Below, in pieces: positions 3,988-50,422 of a DNA stretch of 64,000 bases. Each line of letters begins with the position of its first letter. Within the stretch, counting starts at the first letter, position 1. The position numbers were made by a program, and so were the translations under genes. The notes beneath the pieces are model-generated. The model was not told where the DNA came from. It did no database searches and was given only the letters and a program-made list of their open reading frames with translations. Origin of the DNA: a virus (lineage: Duplodnaviria > Heunggongvirae > Uroviricota > Caudoviricetes); IMG/VR virus record IMGVR_UViG_2609459822_000013, positions 1-64,000 of that record; one strand, written 5' to 3'.

Positions 3988-4003
3988 GTTTACAAAATGG
4001 AAT
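3988..4003 (+). repeat. dispersed motif copy GTTTACAAAATGGAAT
   Basis: exact 16-mer; overlaps the last codons of the phosphoesterase gene, just upstream of the helicase RBS. Confidence 0.6.
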
Positions 4004-5108
4004 ATTCAGGGTAATAAACAAAGCGCCCGATTTCCCCGTGATCAGGACTGTAAATTATTCCCGCCGTCAGACGCCGCGACCGCCAGCCGCCATTCGTTGA
4101 ATAAGCGTCTTTGCCCGCTAACGTGCCGTGATACTCAACAACGCCTAACGATGATTCAATCAACCGTTGGTGGTGCCAGTGCCCGCAATGAGCATAAACC
4201 GCCGCAGACTTACCGAAATCTTCCCGCCAGTCAGAGACGCAGGCAGACAACAAATTTTCTGGTTTTTTGATGGTGTGTCCGTGGTGGTAAGCAAGGAATG
4301 TTTTGCCGTACTGTGTGTGGTGTACGATAGCAGGTGACACGTCAATCGTTACGCGCGGTTCATCTTCGTAAAAAGCCGCCAGCGCAGCACGTAGCCAAAT
4401 CATCCCCGACTGATCGTGATTACCTGATAATACCTGGATTTCGATTTCTTTGTGGTTTAACAACATCTTTCCTACAGCACGGCGGACTGACCGGATCGCC
4501 ACATAAACAAGTTTTGCGTAGCGTGAATCGCAATCAAGTACGTGATTGCTTGATGGCGTCACTGGCAACAGCCCATCAGTGTGAAGAACATCCCCACCGA
4601 GAAGCAATACAGCTTTTTCAGACATCGGCGCTGCGCCTACCGCGTAGTCAAAGAAATCATTTAGCACGCGTTCAGCGATCCCGGTGTCGTAGCTCTCACC
4701 GCATTCAGCTTTATGAGCAAGCGCCCCGATATGCAGATCGAATACCGGATAAAGGGCCAGGCTTTTTTGGAAATCAATTTCCGGCACTGGCACGGCCTCC
4801 GCGCGTGGCATGTCTTCCGTGAAAGCATCGCAAGCCGCTTGCATTAGCCTTTCCATTTCATCGCGATCACGGGCTGTTTTAATCCAGCGCATAATCACAT
4901 TGCCATCCTTATCGACGAGCAATGACTCACCATTGACGCCAAAGCCCGGCGCGCGACGCGTGGATATTAAACCGCGTTTCGCCAACCGTGCGCCCAGGCG
5001 TTCGACGTTGCGTTTTGCCATTCCATATTCTTCTGCTATTTGCTTGTAAGTTTTCCCCTTGTTGTACTCGGCGATCAGTTCCTCATCGCTGATCTTTCTT
5101 TGTGACAT
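3990..5108 (-). CDS. N-terminal HTH fused to calcineurin-like metallophosphoesterase
   Basis: 372 aa; HTH YKQIAEEYGMAKRNVERLGARLAKRG; phosphoesterase motifs GGDVLHTDG, SGNHDQSG, HHGH, GHWHH. Confidence 0.6.
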   Translation of the reverse strand: MSQRKISDEELIAEYNKGKTYKQIAEEYGMAKRNVERLGARLAKRGLISTRRAPGFGVNGESLLVDKDGNVIMRWIKTARDRDEMERLMQAACDAFTEDMPRAEAVPVPEIDFQKSLALYPVFDLHIGALAHKAECGESYDTGIAERVLNDFFDYAVGAAPMSEKAVLLLGGDVLHTDGLLPVTPSSNHVLDCDSRYAKLVYVAIRSVRRAVGKMLLNHKEIEIQVLSGNHDQSGMIWLRAALAAFYEDEPRVTIDVSPAIVHHTQYGKTFLAYHHGHTIKKPENLLSACVSDWREDFGKSAAVYAHCGHWHHQRLIESSLGVVEYHGTLAGKDAYSTNGGWRSRRLTAGIIYSPDHGEIGRFVYYPEYSIL

Positions 5109-5285
5109 AACGTTATTACCCCCGGTTCGCGGAATGAGTATTTATTCATAAATAACTAATTTTTATTAACATGGATTTCACGGTGTCAAAAAATGCCAGT
5201 AGGGTTAATCAACAACTTATGCAAATTGAAATAACCACTTAATGAATAACTAATCGTATACATTACGGTTTACAATTTGTATACA

Positions 5286-6341
5286 TTAGGATATAGCACA
5301 ACGGAAAAACTTGCACCCCAAATAATCTTCAATGCGTTTTTGTCTTATCGCATCGCTTTTTACTTGCCGTTTGTGATGTGACTCATCAATTTCTACAGCA
5401 ACGTTATTCACAGGATCGTAGCCATCAATAAAATACTTATTGCCAGCAACATCAACAGGATATTGCCTTATTAATTTAACTCCTTTTAGTTTTTCATACA
5501 TAGTTAAGCCAGCATGTTCATAACGCTTCCTAATCATATTTTTACAATTATCTCTCATTTCTGATAATTTCGAGTCGCACTCCTTTTTTATTTCTTCAAT
5601 TACATTTTTATCGCTTTTTAATTCAATAAAGTTTTCTATGTCGTTATAATTCCCGCATTCAAAATTATTATTAAGACCTTTATTTTCACCCCATGCATGA
5701 TACTTTTCTGCCATCTTATCGCTAATATATCTTTCATACCCATAATTTGTTTTAACTATAAAATATTCAATATTTAAATCAATGGTAAACTCATCATTAT
5801 TGAGGTGTTCAGTTAAAAACGCATCTGGATCTGCAATATCGCTTGAATGGAACAACCTTACCCATAGTTTTTCTATTGATACTCCGCGAGTGACGAACAA
5901 CCATTTTTTGTACTTTTCAGCATCTTCTTTTGACACATACACAGAACATCGCCCAGGAGTATCACTCGTTTCAACATAATTGTTACACCATAAAATATAA
6001 TTATAAGCATAAGGACTATCTTTTTTGGTGTTATTTGAATATTTATTAAAGATATCTTGCAAGTCAACTAATCCACAAGATTCAATAACTGGCTTAACCC
6101 ATTTTTCATTATATTCATAATGTCTATATTTACCAGGTGTAACGAATCTAATAAACGTTATGGGTGTGATATACACATCATCACCATCAACAATAAAATC
6201 CTTGTATTCCTCAAATCCGTAAAGATCAGAGTATTTAACAAATGATTTAAGTCTATCAATTTCAAGTTCAGAAACCAGATTATTAACAGACAGTAATTGC
6301 GTGTCCTTACAATTGAGTTTCATATGATAAGTAGCAATCAT
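5286..6341 (-). CDS. AT-rich accessory protein with C-terminal restriction-endonuclease-like (Vsr/DUF559-type) domain
   Basis: 351 aa from ATG with perfect AAGGAGG RBS; strongly AT-rich codon usage; C-terminus GNKYFIDGYD...VAVEIDESHHK...DAIRQKRIEDYLGCKFFR matches the Vsr/DUF559 pattern. Confidence 0.55.
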   Translation of the reverse strand: MIATYHMKLNCKDTQLLSVNNLVSELEIDRLKSFVKYSDLYGFEEYKDFIVDGDDVYITPITFIRFVTPGKYRHYEYNEKWVKPVIESCGLVDLQDIFNKYSNNTKKDSPYAYNYILWCNNYVETSDTPGRCSVYVSKEDAEKYKKWLFVTRGVSIEKLWVRLFHSSDIADPDAFLTEHLNNDEFTIDLNIEYFIVKTNYGYERYISDKMAEKYHAWGENKGLNNNFECGNYNDIENFIELKSDKNVIEEIKKECDSKLSEMRDNCKNMIRKRYEHAGLTMYEKLKGVKLIRQYPVDVAGNKYFIDGYDPVNNVAVEIDESHHKRQVKSDAIRQKRIEDYLGCKFFRCAIS

Positions 6342-6492
6342 ATATACCTCCTTTATTAATTTTCTATATAACGCCTCAGACGAGCTACAACGCAAAAATC
6401 CCACCGCGTAACCCGTTTACAGGTTGCAGTGTCTTATTGCGCTAGAGGCGCTATCAGGTGGCTAATTTTCGATTTACAGACTGGTAGGTAGG

Positions 6493-6594
6493 TTATGGAT
6501 TAACTAGCAGATACAAACCGCCGAACAAGGCGACGTTAACAGCGATAGCCATCGCGATCGCGAAAGCCAGGGCGAACATGCGTTTACCGTCCAT
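6493..6594 (-). CDS. small hydrophobic peptide (33 aa, MDGKRMFALAFAIAMAIAVNVALFGGLYLLVNP)
   Basis: short ORF with AGAGGA RBS; single predicted transmembrane helix; between replication initiator and nuclease-like gene. Confidence 0.3.
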   Translation of the reverse strand: MDGKRMFALAFAIAMAIAVNVALFGGLYLLVNP

Positions 6595-6726
6595 TTTAAA
6601 ATCCTCTCTGTAACGCTCTCTAACGAGCTAATCGCAAAAAGGCAAGCAAGTTAGCACCACATGCGATTTAGCTCGCTGGTGAGGTTGTTTTGTGGGTAAT
6701 TTTGGATTTTTGCGGATCGTGATTGG

Positions 6727-7773
6727 TCAAAGAACGCCAGCGCGCGTATCACGTAGCGTTTTTGGTTTAAGCAGAAAATCAAGTGTCGCAGTGAAGCCAT
6801 TGCCAAAGTAAAAATCTGAAGCCGTGTTTTTGAACGTTTCGAAGTAGGCGACAAAGCCGTTAATGCTTTTGTCTTTCAGGTAGTCAGTGAACGCATAGAT
6901 CTTGCGTTCAAGATCCCGATCCAGTTCGGCAGGTGGTAACAGGCCGTCAAACGTGCTGTTAAATGCTTCCACCACGTCGGCAGCGTTTACAGTAGCTGAT
7001 AGCTTGCGCCATTGTTCAGCATCAGCCAAATACCCATCAAACCTAGTTACCCGGCAAATGTTGATAGGCTTAGGTACTCCATCACGGCTACGCCATTGGG
7101 TTAAAGCCCACTCAATTACTAACGTGATCTCATTCTCCGTATACGCTTTACATGTTTTTGTTTCTGTCAGTAGTTCTACGAATGGCTTAGCATCACGACA
7201 TTTGCATCCTGCCTTGTCGTTGTAGAAGGCAAGGCAACGCAATGCCGCTTCGTTTACGCCATCCTGATTGACCATTTTTTGTTCATTTTCGACAATACAC
7301 GAAGTGTATATATCTTTTTCTCTTTCTTTTTCTACTTCTAATTCATGACCCTTTCCTGACCCGGTCATGACCCTATCATGACCTTTTTGTGTTGGATTGA
7401 TTAACTTTTCTAATTTTAATTGTTCCTTCGCTGTGTTTATGGCGGCCCTGTAAGCGCTTTTAGAAGTCATTGATTGGTCCAGCCTTTTCAATAACTTTAA
7501 ACAAGTTATGTGGCCTTGAGAACATTCAAACAAACCAATTTCGATGAAGTATTTCATCATTTCTTCTATACGTTTTTCAGTAGATCCGACGTTTCGCGCA
7601 ATTATTCTTGCGTCATGTCGTAGGTCAAAAGTTAGATTGTGCTGATCTACGTCATAAGTTATTAGTTCTAGGCAATACCAATAAAGCCCGTACCCTTCCA
7701 GGCCATAATCTAACAAAACGTTTTGAAGTTTTTCATCGCGGTTCGCATCGCTGTCATGCTTAAACCACTTCAT
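6727..7773 (-). CDS. phage replication initiation protein (DUF4373-type N-terminus)
   Basis: 348 aa; N-terminus MKWFKHDSDANRDEKLQNVLLDYGLEGYGLYWYCLELI characteristic of phage replisome organizers; GGAGGG RBS. Confidence 0.7.
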   Translation of the reverse strand: MKWFKHDSDANRDEKLQNVLLDYGLEGYGLYWYCLELITYDVDQHNLTFDLRHDARIIARNVGSTEKRIEEMMKYFIEIGLFECSQGHITCLKLLKRLDQSMTSKSAYRAAINTAKEQLKLEKLINPTQKGHDRVMTGSGKGHELEVEKEREKDIYTSCIVENEQKMVNQDGVNEAALRCLAFYNDKAGCKCRDAKPFVELLTETKTCKAYTENEITLVIEWALTQWRSRDGVPKPINICRVTRFDGYLADAEQWRKLSATVNAADVVEAFNSTFDGLLPPAELDRDLERKIYAFTDYLKDKSINGFVAYFETFKNTASDFYFGNGFTATLDFLLKPKTLRDTRAGVL

Positions 7774-7776
7774 AGA

Positions 7777-8034
7777 TCATCCCTCCGGCAACATCACTAC
7801 ATAGACATCACTGAATGCATCAAGACGACAAACAAATCCTTTATCCATTAACGCGGCGAAGGCATCATGTACCGTATGAACAGGAAGTTCACACATTGCG
7901 GCTACTTCTTTGCGTGATGCATCATGTACCCGTCCTTTGTTATCTGCCTTTTCAGCCAGAGCCATTAAGACAAGTTTTTGAATCGGGCTGTTAAGTTTTA
8001 CGTTCCATACTTCATTCATCATGTGCATACTCAT
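7777..8034 (-). CDS. early HTH regulator in Cro position (85 aa)
   Basis: divergent from the CI-like gene; start chosen at ATG with AGGAGA RBS; HTH-like segment SRKEVAAMCELPVHTVHDAFAALMDKG. Confidence 0.5.
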   Translation of the reverse strand: MSMHMMNEVWNVKLNSPIQKLVLMALAEKADNKGRVHDASRKEVAAMCELPVHTVHDAFAALMDKGFVCRLDAFSDVYVVMLPEG

Positions 8035-8253
8035 CGTGTTTTCTCCTATGGTTAGAGTGAACGCGCGGGCGGGCATCCCATTAGCATTAGATAGCAGTGA
8101 CTGACCGCTCAACAGATCCCGCCGTTGCGTGATATTTGTTTTTCGCTTCGCAGCGACACCGGATTTTTAAAGAGCTTAAGGTAAGTGCCTTTTTGTGCCT
8201 TCCGTTATCTTTTTCCTTGCGTCTTTGCAAGTATGGCCTTACCTTGTCTGCAA

Positions 8254-8269
8254 GTTTACAAAATGGAAT
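8254..8269 (+). repeat. dispersed motif copy GTTTACAAAATGGAAT (in CI/Cro intergenic region)
   Basis: 16/16 identical to the copy at 3988-4003. Confidence 0.6.
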
Positions 8270-8339
8270 TTTAAGATCAAGGCTTAAAATACACGTTTTG
8301 TGACTTGCATCAAACTTTTTGAGGTTATAGGGTAGCGAC

Positions 8340-8987
8340 ATGAAAACAAAATGGTATGACTTAGCAAAGCAGCTCATGCGGGCGCAGGGCATGAGCCAGG
8401 ATTCACTAGCGGATCGCATGGGGATAACTAAAGGCGGTCTGTCACACTGGCTGAACGGTCGCCGCGAGCCAAATCTTGAAGATATTGCGCGGATTATGCG
8501 AGAGCTTGGTCGTCGGCAGTTCACTGTTACACATGATGGTATGGTCATTGATGATTCTGTTTCTAATACACTTCAGGCCGTGCCGCCGCGTGATTTAGGT
8601 AGTTACCCGGTTATTGACTGGAAGGACACAGTAAACAATATGGATGACGCAAGGCGTTCAGCATTACGACACGTTACGACTAGCGTTATTTGTTCAGATG
8701 ACAGTTACTGGCTGGTTGCCAAAGGTGAATCAATGAACGCGCCGCAGGGGTTGAGCATCCCGGCGGGGACGATGATACTTGTGGACCCGCACGCGCCAGC
8801 TATTGACGGCAAACTGGTTATAGCCCAGCTTGAGGAAGGGCAGATACCGACGTTTAAACAGTTGATTATTGATGGAGGTCAAAGGCTTTTACGTTCGCTC
8901 AATCCGCTGTATCCGCCAATCCCTATGAATCCAGAATCAAAAATTATAGGCGTGGTGGTTGATGCGAAGATCGTAAACCTGCCATAA
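8340..8987 (+). CDS. CI-type phage repressor (HTH + S24 LexA-like peptidase)
   Basis: 215 aa; N-terminal HTH (QDSLADRMGITKGGLSHWLNGRREP); C-terminal S24 motifs (AKGESMNAP...GTMILVDP). Confidence 0.85.
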   Translation: MKTKWYDLAKQLMRAQGMSQDSLADRMGITKGGLSHWLNGRREPNLEDIARIMRELGRRQFTVTHDGMVIDDSVSNTLQAVPPRDLGSYPVIDWKDTVNNMDDARRSALRHVTTSVICSDDSYWLVAKGESMNAPQGLSIPAGTMILVDPHAPAIDGKLVIAQLEEGQIPTFKQLIIDGGQRLLRSLNPLYPPIPMNPESKIIGVVVDAKIVNLP

Positions 8988-8992
8988 ACATG

Positions 8993-9018
8993 AGCCGCCG
9001 GATGGCGGCTTTTCTTTG
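8993..9018 (+). terminator. Rho-independent terminator after repressor gene
   Basis: hairpin AGCCGCCGGATGGCGGCT followed by T-run. Confidence 0.6.
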
Positions 9019-9096
9019 CCTAAAGAACACCAAAACGTAAACAGAAAACGTTACTTATTGTTTAAATATCAATAGCATATAAAATATTTTAAAAAA

Positions 9097-9110
9097 GTAT
9101 ACAAAATGGA
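9097..9110 (+). repeat. dispersed motif copy GTATACAAAATGGA abutting pL-like -35
   Basis: core ACAAAATGGA; immediately upstream of TTGACT. Confidence 0.55.
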
Positions 9111-9139
9111 TTGACTCGATGTTTTACGGGGCGTATATT
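9111..9139 (+). promoter_or_regulatory. candidate sigma70 promoter (pL-like): TTGACT-N17-TATATT
   Basis: near-consensus -35/-10 with 17 bp spacer downstream of repressor terminator and upstream of the nut-like site. Confidence 0.4.
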
Positions 9140-9393
9140 GCGAGTCAAAGGAAGGGCGCAGGTAACAAAAGCAACTTCCTGGCACTTTAAAAATCAGGCT
9201 TAACACCTTGTCAACCGTGGAGTAACTCCCCGATGGGGGACCGAAAGCGGCACTGATAACAAGGCGCATGGGGTGTTTAAAGCGTTACATCCCCCACGAA
9301 ACCGCACGCAAGGCGACGAGTCAGCTTGCTTGGAGTGAGCAAGGTCACGCCGGGAACGGCGATGATTGCGGGATTAGTTGCAAGATGTTAAGC

Positions 9394-9431
9394 CGCTCAT
9401 TAACAATCTGGTCAGCCGCTGGAAGTGCGGC
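9394..9431 (+). promoter_or_regulatory. nutL-like site: boxA-like CGCTCATTAACAA plus boxB-like hairpin GCCGC-TGGAAGT-GCGGC
   Basis: boxA closely resembles the recalled boxA consensus; 5 bp stem hairpin 8 nt downstream; ~55 nt upstream of the N-like gene. Confidence 0.5.
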
Positions 9432-9487
9432 AATTAACGAAGATGATTTTTTATTAAGTATCATCAAGGATATACGGAGATCAGATT

Positions 9488-9778
9488 ATGAGCGTTACAA
9501 TTATATATGGTAAATGTGATAGCAAAATGAATGCCAGGGAACGCAGAAGGATAAAAAGAGAAAACGAAAGAAAATCATCACCTGCAATCAATAAAACAGA
9601 CAATGTGGATAAAGCTATTCGATTTGCAAACGAGGAAAGATGCAAACCGAATGGCATTAAAGAGCATCGCAAAGGTGCGGCAAAATGGTATGCGGAAAAC
9701 GAAAGCGGCAATTACTACCACGCAACACAACCGCGTAGTCTAGGGGAAAAACCCCTGGATAAAGTACGCTACAGATAA
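9488..9778 (+). CDS. N-type transcription antiterminator (P22 gp24-like)
   Basis: 96 aa; N-terminus MSVTIIYGKCDSKMNARERRRIKRENERK resembles recalled P22 gene 24 N-terminus and carries an arginine-rich motif; ACGGAG RBS. Confidence 0.65.
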   Translation: MSVTIIYGKCDSKMNARERRRIKRENERKSSPAINKTDNVDKAIRFANEERCKPNGIKEHRKGAAKWYAENESGNYYHATQPRSLGEKPLDKVRYR

Positions 9779-9927
9779 TACAAAATGTAAACTTTCAAAG
9801 GTGACATTATGGTTGTTCAGGCGCTTCAATTCAAACTGGCAGTAGCGGAAATGCTTCACGATGCCGAAATGTGGAGCGCCGCGAATAAAGCCTTATACAT
9901 AGTGTTAACAGCACGGGAGATTAAATA

Positions 9928-10988: not shown

Positions 10989-11064
10989 AATCAATGCGTT
11001 AGCTATGAGTGATTATCTAAAACCGCCACCGCAACCACGAACAAAAGAGCAAGTATTAAAAGAA

Positions 11065-11657: not shown

Positions 11658-11664
11658 GGCAATC

Positions 11665-13192: not shown

Positions 13193-13291
13193 CAGCGTGA
13201 TTGCGATCACATAAATATACATTTTGTATTGTGATTGCATATCCGTTTTGTAAGCCGAAATCAAAAGGTTTACGGTGCGGAGGAAAACAAG

Positions 13292-14029: not shown

Positions 14030-14224
14030 ATGGTTATTTTGTTCTTTTTCGTATTCTCATGTATAGCTACGGTTTTTATTGGAATTTTATGTGGTGTGTC
14101 GTTTGTTACATGGGAGCCACCAGAAATTCCATCACCTGATGATGCGCTTTATATATTAAGGGTTATTATTGCTGTTAGTGTATTTGTTGGGTTCTTTTTC
14201 GCTGATTCTACTGATGATTTATAA
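14030..14224 (+). CDS. small membrane protein (2 TM)
   Basis: 64 aa, two hydrophobic segments. Confidence 0.35.
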   Translation: MVILFFFVFSCIATVFIGILCGVSFVTWEPPEIPSPDDALYILRVIIAVSVFVGFFFADSTDDL

Positions 14225-14225
14225 A

Positions 14226-14459
14226 ATGGCTTTATTTAACCTGTCAGAGCCGCAATTTAACGCCGTAAAGACTGCCGCCCGCGCCGCGCTTTCGGCCTGC
14301 AAAGCGGAAGTAGAAAAGAACGGCTACAGCGATAAAGCCACGCGGCTGATATTAGATAAGCATTATCGCAAGGTCGCCCCGCTAATCAGTATTGAGCGTT
14401 TTGTGTGGTTGGTGGGGTATCTGAATAACCGCTGGGGAACAGATCAGGATTATTTCTAA
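14226..14459 (+). CDS. hypothetical protein (77 aa)
   Basis: ORF with internal ATG start after stop of upstream gene. Confidence 0.4.
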   Translation: MALFNLSEPQFNAVKTAARAALSACKAEVEKNGYSDKATRLILDKHYRKVAPLISIERFVWLVGYLNNRWGTDQDYF

Positions 14460-15321: not shown

Positions 15322-15805
15322 CAGGTTATTAGCCTGCGTTTATGTCGCCGTTTTCGTTATCATCAATCTTATTGTTAACCACTGTGGCACGTGGGTAATT
15401 CCGATCACCACGGTAGCCGCCGTGTGTGTCAATATGATGATTCGTGATTTTCTGTTATATGACGGCGGCCTTAAATGGTCGGCTACAACATGCGCCGCCG
15501 CTGGCGCAATCACGGTGCTGATAAATTACGACGCCGGAATGGTGGCGATCGCGTCATTCGTCGCGGTTGTTTCCGGTGCGCTTATTTCTGGCGGCGTTTA
15601 CCGGGTTTTACCTGGTGATTTCGATTCTAAACGCTGGCCTGCAAATATAGCGTCCGCCATTGGCGATGCGTTAATTTTCCCAACGCTATCGTTTATGGCA
15701 TTCATGCCGGAAATATCAGCTATGCAATTCATCTCAAAAATGGCGGCGGTAACGGTGATCACTATCATCATGCGCCGCTACTTTACGTTCGAGGGTAGGA
15801 AATGA
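15302..15805 (+). CDS. integral membrane protein (167 aa, ~5 TM)
   Basis: multiple hydrophobic helices. Confidence 0.5.
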   Translation: MKMVAIDRLLACVYVAVFVIINLIVNHCGTWVIPITTVAAVCVNMMIRDFLLYDGGLKWSATTCAAAGAITVLINYDAGMVAIASFVAVVSGALISGGVYRVLPGDFDSKRWPANIASAIGDALIFPTLSFMAFMPEISAMQFISKMAAVTVITIIMRRYFTFEGRK

Positions 15806-16565
15806 GTGGGCTTAGAAATTGGGTGGTGTGGTCGCTGTACGACGGCAGCGGATACGCCGTTAAAGATTGGGCCGACGCTGGTTATAAATGCTATTGCTTC
15901 AACTATGATGGCGCTAATCACGGCGATTATGAAGGCGTCAAAATCATTCATCCGAACATTGAGTATATCAACGTATGGATTGACAGCCATTTCCTGGTAA
16001 TGTTCTCCCCTGAATTGTCTGTTTATCCAGATCCTGACATTATCCTGGGCTTTCCTCCGTGCGACGATCTTGCGGTGTCCGGCGCTCGCTGGTTTGCTGA
16101 TAAGCGGAAAAAGATCCTTACTTCCAGCAGAAGGCGGCATACAACGCAAAACTGGTAGAAACGCTTGCTGATATGTACCACGTCCCGTGGATGGTGGAAA
16201 ATCCGGTAGGTGCGCTGTCAACGTTATGGCGCAAACCTGATTTTATCTTCAACCCGTGCGCTTACGGTGGCTACCTGCCTGAAGACGACAAACACCCTGC
16301 TTTCCCTGAATACATAGCTGCCCGCGACGCATACACGAAGAAAACTTGTATCTGGTGCGGGAATGGATTTAAGCAGCCGCTATTCCGGTCTGTACCTATG
16401 CCGGATGAATGGGAAGACAGCAAACAGCACGCGAAGTTAGGAGGAAAGTCGAAACGCACTAAGATGATCCGCTCACTAACGCCGCGCGGCTTTGCCCGTG
16501 CTGTATTCTTGGCTAACGACCGGGCCATCACTCGTACTACGCTTAACCGCATTTTACCGGACTAA
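15802..16565 (+). CDS. putative DNA C5-cytosine methyltransferase, frame interrupted (-1 shift required at 16107-16113)
   Basis: ORF 15802-16158 carries a motif IV-like GFPPCDDLAVSGA; ORF 16173-16565 (open from 16104 in the -1 frame) carries ENV-like MVENP and RSLTPRGFARAV; the two frames join across G_AAA_AAG. Confidence 0.45.
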
Positions 16566-16566: not shown

Positions 16567-16582
16567 GTTTACAAAATGGCAT
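16567..16582 (+). repeat. dispersed motif copy GTTTACAAAATGGCAT
   Basis: 13-mer GTTTACAAAATGG identical to 3988/8254 copies. Confidence 0.6.
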
Positions 16583-16587
16583 CATTG

Positions 16588-16603
16588 TGTGATGCGGATC
16601 ACA
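16588..16603 (+). promoter_or_regulatory. CRP-consensus-like palindrome TGTGA-TGCGGA-TCACA
   Basis: perfect match to both CRP half-sites with 6 bp spacer; contains GATC. Confidence 0.4.
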
Positions 16604-16634
16604 TAATGGCGCTTTTTGTCTTGTTTGGGGGTAT

Positions 16635-16647
16635 CCATTTTGTATAC
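16635..16647 (-). repeat. dispersed motif copy (reverse) TATACAAAATGGA
   Basis: inverted partner of the 16567 copy, 55 bp away. Confidence 0.55.
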
Positions 16648-16724
16648 TTCAAGCAAACAAAATGCTCTTTAAAAATCCGGCAGCGCTGAAATGCGTAGAA
16701 ATCACCTGAAAAGGAGAGAGCATT

Positions 16725-36943: not shown

Positions 36944-37264
36944 TTATGCTATTTTTTCGTAAAGCACATTCATCTGGGTGCGAATCACTGTTAATATATT
37001 GATTGCTGCGTTCTTATTAATGCGTTTATTCGCTACTATTTTTGTTTTCCCATCAATAACAACCAGATCTGCGTGCAATACATGGTTGAAGTTGACAATG
37101 TAATAATACTGTTTATCGCCAACATGTTGAACATATGCACCATTTAGATTTCCTTTATACCCACAATCACGCTCTGCGACACCGAAGTCAAATTCGCGGT
37201 TCATCTTGCGATTATATGCTACTTGTTTATGTTCCCATTTTCTCATCCATTCATCGCGTTTCAT
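36944..37264 (-). CDS. moron: hypothetical protein (106 aa)
   Basis: reverse-strand ORF inside tail module. Confidence 0.5.
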   Translation of the reverse strand: MKRDEWMRKWEHKQVAYNRKMNREFDFGVAERDCGYKGNLNGAYVQHVGDKQYYYIVNFNHVLHADLVVIDGKTKIVANKRINKNAAINILTVIRTQMNVLYEKIA

Positions 37265-37273
37265 GTTTCACCC

Positions 37274-37933
37274 TTAATTCCAGTTGCAAGCGTTTTTCAC
37301 TTTGTCGATGTGGTTATAAAGACCATCAATGTTAAACACTGCTTTCTCAATGTCGCCAGCTTCCGGCACTGCTTCAATGATAAATTGTTTTTCGTTAACC
37401 AGTTTTTTAATCATTGGGATGGCTTTTTTGCCGTTCCATAATCCAAGAGCTTTATAGTTAGTTGACCGACTCCATTCAGTAGCTACAGCTTTGTGATCGC
37501 CGATCCGGTAGTTAATATAAGTAGTGTCCCCAGCGTCAGTTACATGGTTTGACCATGCTACGAACATTTTTGTTTTATTACCCTGGCAAGCTATTGTTAA
37601 TACAGGTTTGTTTTCATCCCGTGCTTTCAGTGTAGGGAAAGCATCAAGACTTCCGCTGAAATGTTCTGCTTTCACGAAAAGGAACACGTTTTTTGTGTCC
37701 TGCATATCATCTTTTCTTTCGACCACAAGCCACTGTTTACCAGCTTTTTCTTTTGCTAACTGTGCCTCATATGCGGCTTGTTTTGCTTGTTGTTCTGCAA
37801 GCCATTTAGCATTTTTCTCTGCTAATGCTTGTTGCTCTTGATTGGTCACTATAGGCGCTTTTTCATTATCCTCATTGCAACCAACCAGACCCAATACCGC
37901 CGCAATCATTGCCACTTTTGCTAACCGTTTCAT
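37274..37933 (-). CDS. moron: lipoprotein (219 aa)
   Basis: signal peptide with lipobox LVGC; reverse strand within tail module. Confidence 0.6.
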   Translation of the reverse strand: MKRLAKVAMIAAVLGLVGCNEDNEKAPIVTNQEQQALAEKNAKWLAEQQAKQAAYEAQLAKEKAGKQWLVVERKDDMQDTKNVFLFVKAEHFSGSLDAFPTLKARDENKPVLTIACQGNKTKMFVAWSNHVTDAGDTTYINYRIGDHKAVATEWSRSTNYKALGLWNGKKAIPMIKKLVNEKQFIIEAVPEAGDIEKAVFNIDGLYNHIDKVKNACNWN

Positions 37934-37980
37934 AACCCACCACGCTAACTTGATTTACTGACCATTCCCTTTAGCTTCCT

Positions 37981-37994
37981 TATACAAAATGGAG
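37981..37994 (+). repeat. dispersed motif copy TATACAAAATGGAG
   Basis: inverted-repeat partner at 38009-38020. Confidence 0.55.
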
Positions 37995-38008
37995 TCGTTG
38001 AAGTAAAG

Positions 38009-38020
38009 CCATTTTGTATA
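38009..38020 (-). repeat. dispersed motif copy (reverse) TTATACAAAATGG
   Basis: forms palindrome TATACAAAATGG-N14-CCATTTTGTATA. Confidence 0.55.
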
Positions 38021-38060
38021 AAATAGATACACAGATCACATTTTTGCATGAGGTTAAATC

Positions 38061-41208: not shown

Positions 41209-41364
41209 TTAGTTAAGTGCCTTCAGGAAGAAGTCCCGGTATTCATCTTCTTTTGCATTCATCATGAATTGACCGTATTTGAATGCGTCGTCGAAACCCT
41301 TAACGATTGCTATTTCCACTTGTTCGAATGCGTTGTTTAGCATTACCACTACATAGCGTTTCAT
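41209..41364 (-). CDS. moron: small protein upstream of toxin-like gene (possible antitoxin)
   Basis: 51 aa from ATG with perfect AAGGAGG RBS; 17 bp upstream of the toxin-like gene. Confidence 0.35.
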   Translation of the reverse strand: MKRYVVVMLNNAFEQVEIAIVKGFDDAFKYGQFMMNAKEDEYRDFFLKALN

Positions 41365-41435
41365 TTTGGGCCTCCTTCGTTGGTACTGCTTTTCTTCTTG
41401 CTTTCTGTATACATCTTGTTGCGAACTATGTGAAG

Positions 41436-41448
41436 CCATTTTGTAAAC
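41436..41448 (-). repeat. dispersed motif copy (reverse) GTTTACAAAATGG
   Basis: 13-mer exact. Confidence 0.6.
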
Positions 41449-41531
41449 TAGCTATAATCATTGTACTGAAGATCTCATTTTCGCGTAGAAGCGCGTAAAG
41501 ATATATACAAAATGTAACTTATGGGGGTTTT

Positions 41532-42953: not shown

Positions 42954-42967
42954 AACGCACCTCCGCG

Positions 42968-42980
42968 CCATTTTGTTAAC
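42968..42980 (-). repeat. dispersed motif copy (reverse) GTTAACAAAATGG
   Basis: core CAAAATGG. Confidence 0.5.
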
Positions 42981-43028
42981 TTCCCCTTCGTTTGAGTAAA
43001 ATATACATATTGTAAAACAACGATCAAT

Positions 43029-43039
43029 CCATTTTGGTA
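43029..43039 (-). repeat. dispersed motif copy TACCAAAATGG
   Basis: core palindromic CCAAAATGG. Confidence 0.45.
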
Positions 43040-43047
43040 TGATTTAG

Positions 43048-43063
43048 CGTGACGCAGATCACA
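43048..43063 (+). promoter_or_regulatory. CRP-like palindrome CGTGA-CGCAGA-TCACA
   Basis: 15/16 match to TGTGA-N6-TCACA; ~18/20 identical to the 16588 element including flanking AATG. Confidence 0.35.
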
Positions 43064-43081
43064 AAATGACAAGGTGAGAAA

Positions 43082-43786: not shown

Positions 43787-43788
43787 TT

Positions 43789-44520: not shown

Positions 44521-44993
44521 ACGTTGAAACGCCAGCGCAAGGGCTTCGCTTATTGACCGCGCAGAATCAGGAATTCAAGAAGGCTTTTTTAAATACACCT
44601 TTGCGGTTACGGATTGCCGGGAAAGATTATAACGAAAAGACGGCCCCGGCAGCGGTTAATAGTAAATACCCTGACGGAACTACCGTCATTATTGCGCCAG
44701 TAGTTGAAGGCGGTATTGCTGGGATTGGTGTTGTAGGCTGGATCCTGATTGGTGTTTCGGTGGTTAGCGTTGCGTTCTCAATCTTTATGTCCCGCAACAT
44801 GAAGATAAAAACATCGGCAGAAAGCGCACAAGATAACACCATAACGAACAACACCTACACCAGCATTGAAAACAAGGTGGGCCAGGGTAGACCAGTGCCA
44901 ATACTATTAGGTGAAATGAAAATAGGTTCAAACGTCGGATCGTTAGGCATAGACACAAGCAACAATAGAGACGCCTTAGACGTTGTAAGTTAA
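44463..44993 (+). CDS. tail assembly protein I
   Basis: lambda gpI-like pattern (RIAG.D..., Gly/Ala hydrophobic core, LGEMKIGSNV). Confidence 0.7.
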   Translation: MLKFRFTGNLRRYYSKVCLNVETPAQGLRLLTAQNQEFKKAFLNTPLRLRIAGKDYNEKTAPAAVNSKYPDGTTVIIAPVVEGGIAGIGVVGWILIGVSVVSVAFSIFMSRNMKIKTSAESAQDNTITNNTYTSIENKVGQGRPVPILLGEMKIGSNVGSLGIDTSNNRDALDVVS

Positions 44994-45006
44994 CAGGAGA
45001 AAAACC

Positions 45007-48000
45007 ATGAGTAGCGGCGGCGGCAAAGCCAAAACACCAACATTATTGAACGATAACCTGTATCACAAACAGTTTTATCGTGTTTTAGATATTCTCAGCG
45101 AAGGGCCGATATACGGTCCGGTAAACCAGAAAGCGCCATTGAATGACGTGATGCTTAATGACACTCCTGTTACTGACGCAAACGGGAATACATCAATTCC
45201 GGGGATTAGTATAGCCTGGCGCAACGGCACGGCTGACCAATCGCCGATTAATGGTTTTAACGCCATTGAGTCAACCGTTATTGTCAACGCAAAGGTAACT
45301 CACGACACACCAATAATCAGGACTGTTTCAGATCCAAACGTTACCCGCGTCAGGTTGAATCTTGGTGTTGATGCTCTCGTTCAGTCAGATGAAAAGGGCA
45401 ATCAATATAATACATCCGTCATGTTGATGGTTGATGTTAAACCGTCATCATCTTCTACGTGGTCGCTGATTAAAGACATACACATTGGCCCTGGTAAACA
45501 AAGCGGTGAATACCTGGAAGCTCACATCATTAAAGCGCCGGATGAAAAACCGTTTGATATTCGCGTTCGTCGCATAACACCAGACAGCAACGGCGATCTA
45601 TTGCGGAATGATACGCGGTGGAGTAGTTACAGCGAAATAATAGATGATAATCTGTCTTATCCTCATACCGCTGTAGCTGGCGCCGTAATTGACCATGATC
45701 AGTATACTGATACGCCTACCCGCACCTATCACCTTCGCGGCCTGATTGTTGATGTGCCTGACAACTACAACCCTGAAACGCGCACATATTCAGGTTTATG
45801 GCTTGGTGGGTTTAAAAAGGCGTATACCAATAACCCTGCATGGCTTTTCCGGTATCTGGTTAAAAACGAGCGCTTTGGACTTGCTCGACATGCTGGTTAC
45901 ATTGATGTTGATGATGGCGCTTTGTACGTGCTTTCTCAATACTGCGATCAGTTGGTTGATGATGGCTATGGTGGCCTTGAACCTCGCATGACGCTTAACG
46001 CTTACATTACGGAGCAAATGAGCGCCCGCGACTTACTGGATAACATCGCAGGTATGTTCCGTGGTATCGCGTTATGGGACGGACAACGTCTTACCGTGAT
46101 GATTGATGCGCCACAAGATCCAATCGCCACCATCACAAATGCAAACGTCGTTGATGGCGCGTTTACTCGTTCAAGTATCGCACGCGCAGAATGCTACAAC
46201 GCCGTGATCGTATCCTGGACTGACCCTGAAAACGGCTGGGAGCAATCAAAAGAATATGTCGCAGATGATAAACTAATCGCCCGTGATGGTTATAACGAAA
46301 CCACGTTGGAGGCGTTCGGTTGCACTTCACGCGGGCAAGCGCACCGCGCTGGTAAATGGCTGATCGAAACAGCGAAACGCGAGCCGTCAAAATTCACATT
46401 TAAAATGGCCCGTGACGCCATTCACTTTACGCCGGGGGATATAATCGAGATCCTCGATAATAATCGCGCAGGCGCTCGTTTAGGCGGTCGCATCGTGGCG
46501 AACAATGGCAGAGCGATCACGGTCGACAAGGTTGATTCTGAATATATCGCGGCTGGCGACACCATCAGCTTACTTGATAGCGATGGTAAATTTAAAAAAC
46601 ACCAGATCATCGGAGTTAACGGGAACATTATCACCCTTGCAGCCGCCCCGGCGTGGATTCGTAACGGCACTGTTTTTGCTGTATCAACCAACGCAGCAAA
46701 ACCCGTTTTATGTCGAATCACCAGTGTAGCAGAAACAGAAAATAACAGCGTATACACCATCGAGGCCGCACAGCATGATCCACATAAGCAGGCCGTAGTC
46801 GATAATGGCGCAATCTTCGAGATCAATAACGACACGCTTAATCACTTCCGCGTGCCGAACATTGAAAATCTGAAGGTGTTAAACGTTGGATCTGAAACGG
46901 TTCAATGTCGCGCAACATGGGAAACACAGACGACAACGCGTCGCCTGACCTTTGAGATTCGCGTGTATAACGCCGAAGGCGCTGTAGTTAAAAGCTACGA
47001 AACCACGAATTACAGTTATGATTTTTATGGCATTGATGCTGGCAACTACTCATTAGGCATTCGTGGCAGAAATGACACGGGCATGAAGGGTGCGGAAAGC
47101 ATTGTCGATCTGGTTATTGGCGCACCAGCGGCCCCAGTTGGCGTTAATTGGGTTCCCGGTGTATTCCAGGCTACAGTTTACCCGATCAGCAGAACAACGC
47201 TCACCACTGATACCAGTTACGAGTTTTATTACTCAGGTGAAACGCAGATCACTGATCCGGCATCAATAACCACTAAAGCACAATATACCGGGCGTGGTCA
47301 TCAGTGGACGTTTGGCGGCATGAATACAGGTCACACATATTACGTTTATGTGCGCGCGCGTAACGCTTTTGGTGTGTCTGACTTTGTGGAAGCGTCAGGT
47401 AAGCCAACAGAAAACTTTGATGAAATTACCGATTACGTCACCAAAGACGTAATGAATTCCAAACAATTTAAAGAAATGGTTGGTGACATTAAAGATCTAG
47501 GCGACCGCACTGATCTTATCGAAAGCGCTACGAATGACCTTAAAACTGCTACTGACAACCTCAAAACTGCAACTGATAATCTGACCAACATAACTGACGA
47601 TTTAAGGACTGAAACTGACAACCTAACCATAGAAACAGGATCAATAAAAGCTGATACTGATACGCTCAAAAAAGAAACGGAAGATCTTTATAAAAAAGTT
47701 AAGGAAAACGCCGATGATATTGGACAGCATGAGTCGAGAATCGACTCGCTGGAGGTGTCTAGCGAAAAAGTTGGCAGCGAACTGGCGCAAGCAAAAGCAA
47801 GTCTGCAAAACGCCTCACTTGCTCTTATTAATAACTCGCTTGCACAGACTAACACTCGCGTAACTCTTACCGCTCAGTACAAGAAAGGCAGGACAGAGAC
47901 GAAAGCGGAAATTGACCGCATTGACAACGTTATCGCTGAAGAGAAAAAAGCGACAGCGGAATCACTGGAAACCATCACGGCAGAAATGAATGTGATGGAC

Positions 48001-49977
48001 ACAAACCTTAAAGGTCAGATCTCTAATGTGCAACGCGCAGTAGCTGACGAGGCCAGCGCCCGCGCTGAAGCTATTAACGGTGTAAATGCCTCAATAAGCA
48101 ATCTTGACAAGAAAACTGACGCCAGCGTAAACCGTCTTGATCAGGCAATTGCAGACGAAACAAGTGCGCGTACTCAGGCTATCAGCGACGTGAACGCAAG
48201 TATCTCAACACTTGACAAGAAAACTGACGCCAGCGTTAAGCGCCTCGATAATGCAATATCAGATGAAACGCAGGCAAGAAGCGACGCAATAACAGTGGTT
48301 AAAGCTGATTTAACAACGCTTGAAAATAACACAAATGCCAGTGTTAGCCGTCTTGATCAAGCTATCGCTGATGAATCAAGCGCACGTGCTCAGGCGATAT
48401 CAGGTATCAGCGCGACGCTTGGCGGCGTTAAAAGTGAGGTTGATAAAAACAGCGACGAGATAGATCAGGCGAAAGCAAGTCTGCAAAACGCATCTCTGGC
48501 GCTTATTAATAACTCAATGGCGCAAAGCAAGATGAGCACTGTTATTGAGGCGAAATACAGGAAAGGACAAACAAAAACAAAAGCGGAAATAGCAAGGGTA
48601 GACACAGCAATCGCAGATGAGGCGAGCGCACGCGCAGAAGCTATTAGCAACGTTAACGCCAGCGTCAGTAGTCTTGAAAGCAAAACCGACGCGAGCGTTT
48701 CCCGTCTTGATAAAGCAATCGCAGATGAGGCGAGCGCACGCGCAGAAGCTATTAGCGGGGTTAATGCGTCAATTTCCACGCTCGATAGCAAGGTGACAAG
48801 CAACGTAACCAGGATGGATAAAGCGATCGCAGATGAGAAGAATGCACGCACTGACGCAATCAGCAGCCTTAACTCATCGCTTACCAGTACGATTAATTCG
48901 AAAGTATCCGAAGTGTCAACTGCACTTTCTACGCATGAAACATCAAGCGCGGAAAAATTTGGCCAGATCTCGGCATCTTTCGACGATGTAAACTCAAGCA
49001 TCACGGAATGGTCACAGGCTATGGCAACGGCAGACGAGGCATTGTCAACCAGAATCGACCAGTTGAAAGTAACTATTAACGGAAACACAACGGCGATAGA
49101 AACGACATCAAAAGCACTGACTGACTTCAAAGGTAACGTTGATGCGTCATATTCAATTAAGATTGCCACTGATAAAAACGGTATGAAATACGCTACAGGA
49201 ATGTCGCTCGGCCTTACTGGTAGCGGGACTAACGTTCAATCGCAGTGTATTTTCCTCGTTGACCGTTTCGTGCTTATGACTGCGGCAGGTGGCTCCTATC
49301 AGACCCCGTTCTATGTTACTAACGGTGCTTGCTACATCCGTGATGCGTGGATCAGAGACGCATCAATCACTACCGCGAAGATTGCGCAGCAAATTCAGTC
49401 AACCAACTATAAAGCTGGTTCGGCTGGCTGGATGCTAAATAAAAACGGCAATGCGGAGTTCAACAACGTCACTGTACGCGGTACGGTGTACGCAACATCT
49501 GGTAAATTCACTGGTGAGATTCAGGCCACAAGCGGGAAGTTTAAAGGTACAGTAGAGGCAAAGTCATTTGTCGGTGACGTTGCTAACATGGGGGTTGGTC
49601 CAGATCGAGTGCTTGGGCATAACGGAAGTTATAGCGCAACCATCACATATAAAGACAGCACGGATAATGCATTGACGAAATCAGTTATGCTTATGGCGAC
49701 TATTTCATTAATGTCTGGTGAATATAGATCCACTTATAACGTAACGTTTAGTTGCGGAGATAAAAACAAAACAATTTCATATTACGTGCCTTATGGTGGA
49801 TGCACATTAACAGTGCAATGCGCTTTTTCTGGTTTAAAAGCATCAGATATTATCGGGAAAATATATTGTCCTCAAACATCATCATCTGAAGGATACGCAT
49901 ATTGTACCGCGTTGTATTCTCCAACAATGATAGTAGCAAGAGGCACCGGATCATTTAGAACATCAACGACAGCATAA
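45007..49977 (+). CDS. host specificity protein J (central tail fibre), extended with coiled-coil repeat insert
   Basis: 1656 aa; position after I; internal tandem repeat arrays. Confidence 0.8.
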   Translation: MSSGGGKAKTPTLLNDNLYHKQFYRVLDILSEGPIYGPVNQKAPLNDVMLNDTPVTDANGNTSIPGISIAWRNGTADQSPINGFNAIESTVIVNAKVTHDTPIIRTVSDPNVTRVRLNLGVDALVQSDEKGNQYNTSVMLMVDVKPSSSSTWSLIKDIHIGPGKQSGEYLEAHIIKAPDEKPFDIRVRRITPDSNGDLLRNDTRWSSYSEIIDDNLSYPHTAVAGAVIDHDQYTDTPTRTYHLRGLIVDVPDNYNPETRTYSGLWLGGFKKAYTNNPAWLFRYLVKNERFGLARHAGYIDVDDGALYVLSQYCDQLVDDGYGGLEPRMTLNAYITEQMSARDLLDNIAGMFRGIALWDGQRLTVMIDAPQDPIATITNANVVDGAFTRSSIARAECYNAVIVSWTDPENGWEQSKEYVADDKLIARDGYNETTLEAFGCTSRGQAHRAGKWLIETAKREPSKFTFKMARDAIHFTPGDIIEILDNNRAGARLGGRIVANNGRAITVDKVDSEYIAAGDTISLLDSDGKFKKHQIIGVNGNIITLAAAPAWIRNGTVFAVSTNAAKPVLCRITSVAETENNSVYTIEAAQHDPHKQAVVDNGAIFEINNDTLNHFRVPNIENLKVLNVGSETVQCRATWETQTTTRRLTFEIRVYNAEGAVVKSYETTNYSYDFYGIDAGNYSLGIRGRNDTGMKGAESIVDLVIGAPAAPVGVNWVPGVFQATVYPISRTTLTTDTSYEFYYSGETQITDPASITTKAQYTGRGHQWTFGGMNTGHTYYVYVRARNAFGVSDFVEASGKPTENFDEITDYVTKDVMNSKQFKEMVGDIKDLGDRTDLIESATNDLKTATDNLKTATDNLTNITDDLRTETDNLTIETGSIKADTDTLKKETEDLYKKVKENADDIGQHESRIDSLEVSSEKVGSELAQAKASLQNASLALINNSLAQTNTRVTLTAQYKKGRTETKAEIDRIDNVIAEEKKATAESLETITAEMNVMDTNLKGQISNVQRAVADEASARAEAINGVNASISNLDKKTDASVNRLDQAIADETSARTQAISDVNASISTLDKKTDASVKRLDNAISDETQARSDAITVVKADLTTLENNTNASVSRLDQAIADESSARAQAISGISATLGGVKSEVDKNSDEIDQAKASLQNASLALINNSMAQSKMSTVIEAKYRKGQTKTKAEIARVDTAIADEASARAEAISNVNASVSSLESKTDASVSRLDKAIADEASARAEAISGVNASISTLDSKVTSNVTRMDKAIADEKNARTDAISSLNSSLTSTINSKVSEVSTALSTHETSSAEKFGQISASFDDVNSSITEWSQAMATADEALSTRIDQLKVTINGNTTAIETTSKALTDFKGNVDASYSIKIATDKNGMKYATGMSLGLTGSGTNVQSQCIFLVDRFVLMTAAGGSYQTPFYVTNGACYIRDAWIRDASITTAKIAQQIQSTNYKAGSAGWMLNKNGNAEFNNVTVRGTVYATSGKFTGEIQATSGKFKGTVEAKSFVGDVANMGVGPDRVLGHNGSYSATITYKDSTDNALTKSVMLMATISLMSGEYRSTYNVTFSCGDKNKTISYYVPYGGCTLTVQCAFSGLKASDIIGKIYCPQTSSSEGYAYCTALYSPTMIVARGTGSFRTSTTA

Positions 49978-50006
49978 AAAAACGGGGCATAAGCCCCGTT
50001 TTTTTA
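49975..50006. terminator. bidirectional terminator after J
   Basis: ACGGGGC-ATAA-GCCCCGT flanked by A7 and T7. Confidence 0.65.
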
Positions 50007-50016
50007 TGCATTGTTT

Positions 50017-50262
50017 TTATTTTTTACACCCATCATTTACACCAGAAAAATGGATAGGTAAATTACATTCACTGTCAATAATTTTACCTTGTAGTTGTTT
50101 TTCTTTCCATGAGTCAGTATTGAAATAACTCGAACGTTGGTTATCAAGGCCAGTATCACCATATTGAGCAGTGCCAGCATCACTCTTATCTGTCGAATTT
50201 ACAGAAGCAAAAGCACCAAAAGACAGAGCTGATAAGATGCAAGCAACAATTAGTTTTTTCAT
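50017..50262 (-). CDS. moron: small secreted protein (81 aa precursor, 2 Cys)
   Basis: signal peptide MKKLIVACILSALSFGAFA; AAGGTG RBS; reverse strand between J and tail fibre. Confidence 0.55.
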   Translation of the reverse strand: MKKLIVACILSALSFGAFASVNSTDKSDAGTAQYGDTGLDNQRSSYFNTDSWKEKQLQGKIIDSECNLPIHFSGVNDGCKK

Positions 50263-50408
50263 TGTATTCACCTTACTGTTTGTTTTACTGTCATTTGTTG
50301 TTCGTGATGATCCACCCATCCGATGAGCAAATCACCGCAGAAGCTATCATTTCGTATGTTGATATAGATCAAAAAATACATTATGCATAAGCTCAAAGTG
50401 TAACGCGG

Positions 50409-50422
50409 ATTACAAAATGGTA
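50409..50422 (+). repeat. dispersed motif copy ATTACAAAATGGTA
   Basis: core ACAAAATGG. Confidence 0.5.

Follow-up and report, generated by a model that had tools for sequence, protein, structure and literature searches.

Prophage, repressor and copies of the motif

The window, meaning the whole stretch of DNA that was analysed, covers positions 1 to 64,000 of the IMG/VR virus record IMGVR_UViG_2609459822_000013. A mEpimmI-group prophage occupies bases 1 to ~52,300; its DNA is 85–91% identical to that of the members mEp021, mEp010, mEp013, mEp044, mEp515, mEp554, and MagusPhagus. The prophage carries a gene for a CI-like immunity repressor on the plus strand (8340–8987) and a short dispersed motif, for which this repressor is the presumed binder. 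The repressor contains the Pfam domains HTH_3 and Peptidase_S24 and is a homologue of Rep021, the mEpimmI CI-like repressor for which the conferring of immunity was shown experimentally (PMC11893012). The mEpimmI phages were described as Nus-dependent, non-lambdoid temperate siphoviruses of one immunity type, whose N-like antiterminator works at three nut sites, and they were reported to equal lambdoid phages in frequency in human gut samples (PMC11893012).

The repressor aligned over its full length with the lambda CI structure 3bdn (E = 1.4e-20), and the alignment included the C-terminal domain. In lambda CI, this domain mediates dimerisation and pairwise cooperativity. The repressor gene is oriented in the same way as the right operon. 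In its homologues from a database search (40–55% identity), the recognition region read either ITKG(G/A)(L/V)SHWLN or, in a variant form, TQGG(L/A)(G)HWLN. The open reading frame (ORF) that an earlier note on this DNA had placed at the Cro position (7777–8034, minus strand) lacked HTH_3 and instead matched the N-termini of phage replication initiators (PHROG 4617, E = 3e-22).

The core ACAAAATGG occurred 14 times in the window against 1.24 expected copies, and none of 100 dinucleotide-preserving shuffles reached this number. When all k-mers of the window were counted without bias, TACAAAATGG was the most over-represented 10-mer with nine copies, and its extensions ranked first among the 11- to 13-mers. 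With up to two mismatches, GTTTACAAAATGG was found 13 times against 3.3 expected. Copies lie at 3988, 8254, 9097, 16567, 37980, and 50408 on the plus strand and at 16635, 38009, 41436, and 42968 on the minus strand. The copy at 43029 (CCAAAATGG) has one mismatch to the core, and the copies at 41503/41506 (TACAAAATGT) and 1026–1037 (TTATACAAAAT followed by TC) are degenerate.

Every copy listed in the earlier note was recovered at the same place or within 1–4 bp of it, and its account of the 1026 and 41503 copies as degenerate was borne out. Two further observations were also reproduced: the sites at 3988 and 8254 are identical in 16/16 positions over GTTTACAAAATGGAAT, and the 13-mer GTTTACAAAATGG is common to four copies. 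The core match in the Rac region, described as lacking the flanks, was confirmed as such at 58835. Exact core matches absent from that list were found at 8346 (repressor codons 3–5), 33905 (start-codon context), and 43802 (within a tail gene).

A position weight matrix (PWM) of 21 bp was trained on the window's own sites. It added about nine members of the family, at 5268–5284, 9776–9792, 13215–13231, 13239–13255, 14217–14233, 16597–16613, 43001–43017, 50374–50390, and 50437–50453. The window prophage contained 15 PWM sites of at least 14 bits compared to 0.45 in shuffles, and about 22 sites of at least 10 bits across 52 kb. About 18 sites of at least 14 bits were found in mEp021, and the host and Rac sequence of the window (11.4 kb) had no PWM match of at least 14 bits. 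Twelve of 17 site centres were intergenic in a prophage of which a liberal map assigns 91.5% to ORFs (P = 5e-10). The remaining five lie on a stop codon, at the very start of the repressor coding sequence, or in questionable extensions of ORFs. The dispersed 13–16 bp motif is thus genuine and enriched, with approximately 15–20 copies throughout the phage, including the tail-gene region.

A frequency matrix of 232 distinct sites gave as consensus a 15-bp pseudo-palindrome, TWTACA-AAA-TGKAWW, with two-fold symmetry around the central AAA except at positions +4 and +7. Perfect or near-perfect palindromes were found at 5268 (GTTTACAATTTGTATAC), at 13215 (ATACAAAATGTAT), and in mEp021 (TATACAAAATGTATA). 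This pseudo-palindromic form is the one that would be expected of a dimer-bound site. Across 495 distinct contexts the information was confined to about 17 bp (AAGTWTACAAAATGGAT); therefore, the motif is a self-contained site and not half of a fixed promoter. Within operons the orientation was mixed: sense at 9776 and 16567, antisense at 3988, 13215, 13239, and 16631, and palindromic at 5268. Site orientation tracked the place within the promoter rather than the direction of transcription.

Several other identities were considered for the motif and rejected. Most copies had no -10 element at 16–18 bp from the motif read as a -35 hexamer (TTTACA), and a complete promoter with fixed partners was not supported by the 495 contexts, which held no signal outside ~17 bp. 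When consensus sequences were compared by eye, none of the sigma-28, sigma-54, IHF, Fis, TyrR, GalR, LexA, and DnaA sites fitted across the copies. A transcribed RNA element in 5' leaders was discarded for its inconsistent orientation relative to the predicted promoters (pL versus 42968), and leaderless start codons at the motif ATG were discarded as well, with the true starts lying downstream according to PHROG alignments.

Copies on predicted promoters and in short gaps

All promoters and start sites described here are sequence predictions. The left operator copy GTTTACAAAATGGAATT (8254–8270, plus strand, centre 8262, 26.9 bits) covers the -10 and the spacer of a predicted leftward promoter pL, TTGATC (8280–8275)-16-TAAACT (8258–8253), at 8253–8280 on the minus strand, upstream of the nutL boxB (8177–8160). 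TTGAYC and TAAACT were kept across 24 distinct relatives. The right distal copy GTATACAAAATGGATTG (9097–9113, plus strand, centre 9105, 25.2 bits) lies at about -41 of a pR-like early rightward promoter, TTGACT-17-TATATT (9111–9139, plus strand, 10/12 matches in the promoter scan), whose hexamers are conserved. This copy abuts the -35, from which TACAAAATGG is separated by one base. The promoter next to the 9097 copy had previously been called pL-like; this assignment has to be changed to a rightward early promoter. A symmetric-core scan located a degenerate palindrome, TTTACGGGGCGTATA (9123–9137, centre 9130), at about -16 over the -10 of pR, 25 bp from the distal copy. An inverted repeat, TTGACTCG ... 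CGAGTCAA (9111–9148), brackets the core promoter of pR; its right arm varies in relatives (CGAATCAA, CGAGGCAA), and it may lack function.

Further operator-like copies were located in the right operon. A pair on the minus strand (13215–13255; centres 13223 and 13247, 24 bp apart; 20.5 and 13.6 bits) occupies an intergenic gap and adjoins a CRP-like site at 13196–13211; at the equivalent position, mEp021 has TAAACT as the -10. The weaker copy ATTTATAAAATGGCTTT (14217–14233, plus strand, centre 14225, 15.7 bits) lies at a gene junction, where its intergenic status is uncertain since the centre falls inside the maximal TTG-start ORF 14169–14459. Ahead of nutR2, three copies (16567–16647; centres 16575 on the plus strand, 16605 on the plus strand and weak, and 16639 on the minus strand) surround a perfect CRP box (16588–16603) and a predicted promoter, TTGTTT-16-TATACT (16621–16648), directly upstream of the nutR2 boxB GCTCTTTAAAAATCCGG (~16665–16685). 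The members of the 16567/16635 pair are separated by 64 bp and occupy positions near -80 and -16 relative to this promoter. In 33 distinct relatives, the motif copies, the TGTGA/TCACA arms, TTGT, and TATACT of this footprint were kept and the CRP spacer varied. An operator-bearing promoter belonging to nutR2 could explain why the group has three nut sites rather than two. The nutR2 promoter shares a second arrangement with pL, in which a strong copy read as CCATTTTGTAWACT itself holds the -10. The TAAACT of mEp021 at the place equivalent to 13251 is of this kind as well.

Four of the five near-consensus CRP boxes in the window (TGTGA-N6-TCACA, at most one mismatch) adjoin operator clusters: 16588–16603, 13196–13211, 43048–43063, and 8299–8314. 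They lie about 60–62 bp upstream of the predicted starts of the nutR2 promoter, the rightward 13251 promoter, the leftward 43027 promoter, and pL, respectively. The arms of the 16588 box were kept in relatives and its 6-bp spacer was variable, as expected of a real CRP site. These early promoters may be class I CRP-dependent.

In the tail module, copies were found on reverse-strand cassettes. An inverted pair on the minus strand (37979–38021; centres 38013 and 37988, 25 bp apart; 21.5 and 20.9 bits) brackets a predicted leftward TTTACT-17-TATAAG for the cassette 36944–37933, with the TGG ends facing the -35. Relatives keep the 37.9-kb cassette but vary in the cargo to its left. At 41406–41448 on the minus strand, the copy centred on 41440 (24.5 bits) abuts a predicted leftward TTCACA-17-TATACA; 25 bp downstream, the -10 is overlapped by a second site, GCAACAAGATGTATA, which is weak. 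The PHROG match of the ORF 41209–41439 begins at residue 26, thus placing the true start downstream of the 41440 site. Three copies on the minus strand (42964–43041; centres 43033, 43009, and 42972, at about -41, -16, and +21) are located on TTGATC-16-TATATT (43027–43000), which was found in the promoter scan. Downstream of this promoter is a cassette that contains a gene with a KilAC antirepressor domain (ANT/KilAC Pfam match), and a CRP-like site lies at 43048–43063.

The -41/-16 register of pR therefore recurs three times on the minus strand, at 38013, 41440, and 43033. Pairs 24–25 bp apart were found at 9105/9130, 13223/13247, 37988/38013, and 43009/43033; the second site is weak at pR and at 41415. 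The two loci described earlier as carrying inverted pairs, 37988/38013 and 16567/16635, were both tied to predicted promoters. The proposal of a promoter element shared by the reverse-strand morons held in one respect, as every reverse-strand cassette has copies in its promoter region. It failed in another: the copies appear to be operators that overlap the -35 edge and the -10, and the class as a whole shows no -35/-10 signal at a fixed distance.

PADLOC, NCBIfam, and PHROG assigned no function to the cassette genes, and Pfam gave solely VasI-like and KilAC-domain matches. The VasI (type VI secretion-associated) domain (Pfam, E = 1.9e-16) belongs to the cassette gene 37274–37933 (minus strand), between the tail-tube and tape-measure genes, and is unexpected cargo for a tail module. 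The neighbouring 106-aa protein had no match.

Other copies were not accompanied by an assignable promoter, which was sought at the 50.4-kb cluster, 3988, 5268, 9776, and 41503. The 3988 copy (3988–4004, plus strand, 24.6 bits) lies in an 18-bp gap of the left operon between the ORF 3990–5108 and the DnaB helicase gene (2562–3971), and nearly all relatives have a syntenic counterpart. The palindromic copy at 5268–5284 scored 13.7 bits on both strands with the PWM, was also picked up by the symmetric-core scan, and lies in another intergenic gap of the left operon. The copy TAATACAAAATGTAAAC (9776–9792, plus strand, 20.7 bits) directly follows the stop codon of the N-like gene (9488–9778); it is found in the same place in relatives (offset +1439) and in the divergent L132 lineage introduced below. 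The copy TATACAAAATGTAACTT (41503–41519, plus strand, 17.1 bits) lies about 10 bp upstream of the start of a minor tail gene (41532) and recurs in relatives. Three operator-like copies at 50374–50453 (centres 50382 on the minus strand, 50416 and 50445 on the plus strand; 11.3, 18.6, and 12.6 bits) occupy the divergent gap between the cassette 50017–50319 (minus strand) and the tail-fibre gene at 50460 (plus strand), and their counterparts in mEp021 are upstream of a lipoprotein gene. These promoterless copies may serve as transcription roadblocks or as partners in looping.

The first codons of the repressor itself, ATG AAA ACA AAA TGG (8340–8360), are operator-like (15.3 bits) and were kept in all relatives. 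This sequence could be an autoregulatory site or the mere result of the N-terminal peptide MKTKW.

Conservation and the same core beside homologous repressors

The motif search recommended in the earlier note was carried out in 43 relatives gathered via the repressor gene, and copies were found at the same syntenic positions. Their offsets from the repressor start were fixed at about -4000, -2900, -83, +760, +1439, and +4850, with a pair at about +8400/+8466. In the +760 copy (9097 in the window), AAAAAAGTATACAAAATG did not vary among the 30 distinct sequences displayed, out of 33, and in 2 of these 30 it was followed by T in place of G. The -83 copy (8254 in the window) was kept in full across relatives except for a variable central base. 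The only long word common, in direct orientation, to the left and right flanks of the repressor gene was TACAAAATGGA. At a cut-off of 14 bits, the PWM gave 728 matches in 1.73 Mb of group loci. In 0.71 Mb of loci from control phages, which carry related tail proteins or a distant repressor, it gave 2.

The same core was also found beside homologous repressors in other backbones. In a divergent mEpimmI-like phage (L132), whose repressor is 55% identical, the core occurs at pL, at pR, and after the N-like gene, and further copies lie ahead of NinF/NinG and, twice, upstream of an inserted antirepressor gene. This phage has a true HTH_3 Cro-like gene at the Cro position. In ordinary lambdoid or P22-like phages of Tatumella (L135), Serratia (L136), and Citrobacter (L137), as well as in Erwinia phage Midgardsormr38 (L139) and the P22-like Salmonella phage ST64T, 2–3 sites lie in the cro-cI gap. 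The core TAC(A/G)NNN(Y)GTA is common to ST64T, Midgardsormr38, and the Tatumella, Serratia, and Citrobacter prophages. In all of these except the Citrobacter phage, a further two sites, with a spacing of exactly 25 bp, flanked cI on its other side. The complete genome of ST64T contained five sites in immC, and its three other pattern matches were at chance level (8 in total versus 4.7 shuffled). For PL, both ST64T and the Tatumella prophage show the order of distal operator, -35, and then proximal operator over the -10.

An orphan repressor gene was found in Enterobacter roggenkampii (L134, 1–1000), about 200 bp from the contig start and with chromosomal genes downstream. Two sites lie upstream of this gene and three downstream. 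The locus may be what is left of an immunity region after domestication, or a prophage edge cut by the contig end.

Thus, the motif follows the repressor clade across unrelated backbones at canonical operator positions, which argues that it is an immunity operator. Of the roles considered earlier, that of a binding site for a repressor or regulator gained support from this occurrence of one core at OL and OR positions beside homologous CI-type repressors.

The motif as a probable immunity operator

The reading we prefer is that the motif is the operator of the lambda-CI-like immunity repressor of the prophage (8340–8987), with a probability of about 0.75. What is established is that the sites exist, are enriched and syntenically conserved, and co-occur with the repressor clade. 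Binding by the repressor is suggested by this co-occurrence across backbones.

In the proposed mechanism, a repressor dimer would occupy each 15-bp TWTACA-AAA-TGKAWW. At pR and the three cassette promoters of the tail module, a strong site at about -41 would abut the -35, and a second at about -16 would cover the -10; the spacing of 24–25 bp agrees with the pairwise cooperative binding known for lambda CI, and cooperativity could act here too. At pL and the nutR2 promoter, a single strong site would contain the -10. In the lysogen, binding would silence about seven promoter regions spread over the genome, so that the reverse-strand morons would in effect be early genes controlled by immunity. 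The PL of ST64T and the Tatumella prophage is of identical design, and for this reason the promoters of the window are read as repressed and early-type.

A wider reading is tentative and, taken whole, rather doubtful. It proposes a stoperator-like control of the entire prophage by a CI-type repressor. About 20 operators would silence antisense cassettes in the tail genes, each with a promoter-operator of the PL/PR type and often a CRP site. The copies inside operons would be elongation roadblocks or looping anchors, and some -41 sites might activate genes expressed in the lysogen, tying conversion genes to the SOS switch.

Several points weigh against the assignment of the motif to the CI-like repressor. 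The window counts made with the PWM are partly circular, since the matrix was trained on sites of the window. The site columns were only modestly more conserved than their regulatory surroundings, which are themselves well conserved. OL and OR have one strong copy each, compared to 2–3 tandem strong sites in lambdoid relatives, and the proximal OR site, with a PWM score below 9 bits, is the least secure of the operator calls. Position +4 was G in 56% and T, the symmetric base, in 42% of the 232 distinct group sites, and this conserved asymmetry is left unexplained by simple dimer binding. The published description of mEpimmI gives no operators or promoters (PMC11893012).

The remaining objections to the preferred reading concern the binder and the sign of regulation. 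Cro-type proteins use the operators of CI, and therefore the comparative evidence cannot tell CI from Cro. In the lambdoid relatives, the same sites are always accompanied by a flanking cro gene, and co-occurrence has no power to separate the two. A main binder other than the CI-like repressor, whether a Cro-like early regulator or an unknown phage factor, is nevertheless very unlikely. No HTH_3 Cro is encoded at the divergent position of the window, where the ORF is replication-initiator-like, and L132 has an HTH_3 Cro instead while retaining the same motif and repressor recognition helix. The orphan repressor of Enterobacter also retains its flanking sites on both sides, between ~200 bp of upstream contig and the chromosomal genes downstream.

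The position -41 is that from which lambda CI activates PRM, and some copies could thus activate instead of repress. On this basis, a dual-function repressor would activate the cassette promoters from the -41 sites, as lambda CI does at OR2 for PRM; the cassettes would be conversion genes switched off on induction, and negative feedback through the -16 sites would set in only when the repressor is abundant. The -41/-16 geometry is indeed that of lambda PRM with OR2 and OR3, and several cassette -35 hexamers are weak (TTTACT, TTGATC). Expression in lysogens is also to be expected of the exclusion lipoprotein encoded by the 50.4-kb cassette of relatives (PMC11893012). We consider this model unlikely overall, although it may apply to some cassettes, above all at the exclusion-lipoprotein position. 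An identical geometry is found at pR and at the PL of lambdoid relatives, which must be repressed, the proximal sites 37988 and 43009 are strong and cover the -10, and the 43027 promoter has three sites and drives an antirepressor-domain gene.

A primary role of the copies as recombination linkers at module edges, with protein binding secondary to cassette exchange, is marginally less probable than a different binder. Cassette contents differ between the window, mEp021, and MagusPhagus, and the conserved block at 37.9 kb stops about 25 bp past the left operator, beyond which the cargo differs among relatives. This boundary may be a by-product. An identity of 13–17 bp is short for homologous exchange, and linkers would not account for the operator-like symmetry, the 24–25 bp pairing, the fixed registers with -35 and -10 hexamers, and the use of the same core as OL and OR in unrelated phages. 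Hardly credible is an enrichment arising from start-codon contexts (A-rich leader followed by ATGG) or base composition. The exact core matches at 8346, 33905, and 43802 are of coding or start-context origin, and the motif ATG opens a mechanical ORF at 42968 and 41436. Yet no dinucleotide-preserving shuffle matched the count, the flanks are conserved well past the ATG, most copies have no ORF from their ATG, and PHROG alignments put the true starts downstream of the sites.

The closest known systems to the proposed operator are the lambda-type OL and OR, above all those in immC of the Salmonella phages ST64T/L and those of lambdoid prophages whose repressors are homologous. The CI fold and domains are common to the repressors, and the sites are similarly pseudo-palindromes of 15–17 bp that flank the repressor gene, overlap predicted early promoters, and at several loci form pairs 24–25 bp apart. 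In contrast to those systems, the phage of the window has 12–18 more copies far from the immunity region, including four clusters in the tail module, whereas ST64T and the lambdoid relatives had no sites beyond immC above chance. Its repressor gene is also parallel to the right operon, and most of its copies have TGG, not the symmetric TGT. Dispersal of the putative operator, and not the operator itself, is what sets this phage group apart. Since ST64T-like phages use the same operator at OL/OR only, the evolution of dispersed control is open to comparison.

Dispersed operators serving many operons under one immunity repressor are also found in P1, whose C1 repressor has ~17 dispersed, asymmetric operators, and in phiC31, whose c repressor has conserved inverted repeats at many early promoters. 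These repressor families are unrelated to the present one, and we know of no repressed antisense early cassettes inside the tail-gene cluster of P1 or phiC31.

In cluster A mycobacteriophages (L5, Bxb1, TipsytheTRex), many dispersed repressor sites known as stoperators lie in promoters and short intergenic gaps and silence the whole prophage (PMC9283540). The earlier analogy with L5 stands for dispersal, with more than 15 copies of one site genome-wide in promoters and short intergenic gaps. It does not extend to the mode of binding. L5 has a monomeric repressor with two DNA-binding domains, and the asymmetric 13-mer that it recognises has an orientation that follows transcription and is needed for function (PMC9283540). 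By contrast, the window repressor is CI-like with an S24 domain, its site is a pseudo-palindrome suited to a dimer and oriented independently of transcription, and most strong copies overlap predicted promoters.

The outcome for mEpimmI is an operator consensus together with about 20 candidate sites for the repressor and about seven promoters that are candidates for immunity control. The reverse-strand morons of the tail module look like repressor-controlled early genes, rather than constitutive lysogenic-conversion genes. This would be a CI-family repressor with genome-wide sites, a design so far documented for unrelated mycobacteriophage repressors. No description of the motif or of dispersed CI-type operators in enterobacterial phages was found in the literature, many subscription papers being beyond the reach of the search.

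Three minor observations were made elsewhere in the window. Two adjacent ORFs (118 and 130 aa; 15802–16565) occupy the place of a single 252-aa cytosine methyltransferase gene in mEp021, which suggests that this gene is disrupted in the window prophage. The 13-mer CGCACGCGCAGAA occurs three times (46179, 48627, and 48735) inside the gene for the 1656-aa host-specificity (J-like) protein, consistent with the internal repeats reported for this protein (PMC11893012). In the stretch past the prophage end (52300–64000), the order and sizes of the ORFs agree with zntB (327 aa), dbpA (457 aa), and ttcA (311 aa); next come an ORF of integrase size (411 aa) and the region labelled earlier as Rac ralR. 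By length and order, these flanking ORFs fit integration at the ydaM/dgcM site reported for mEpimmI.

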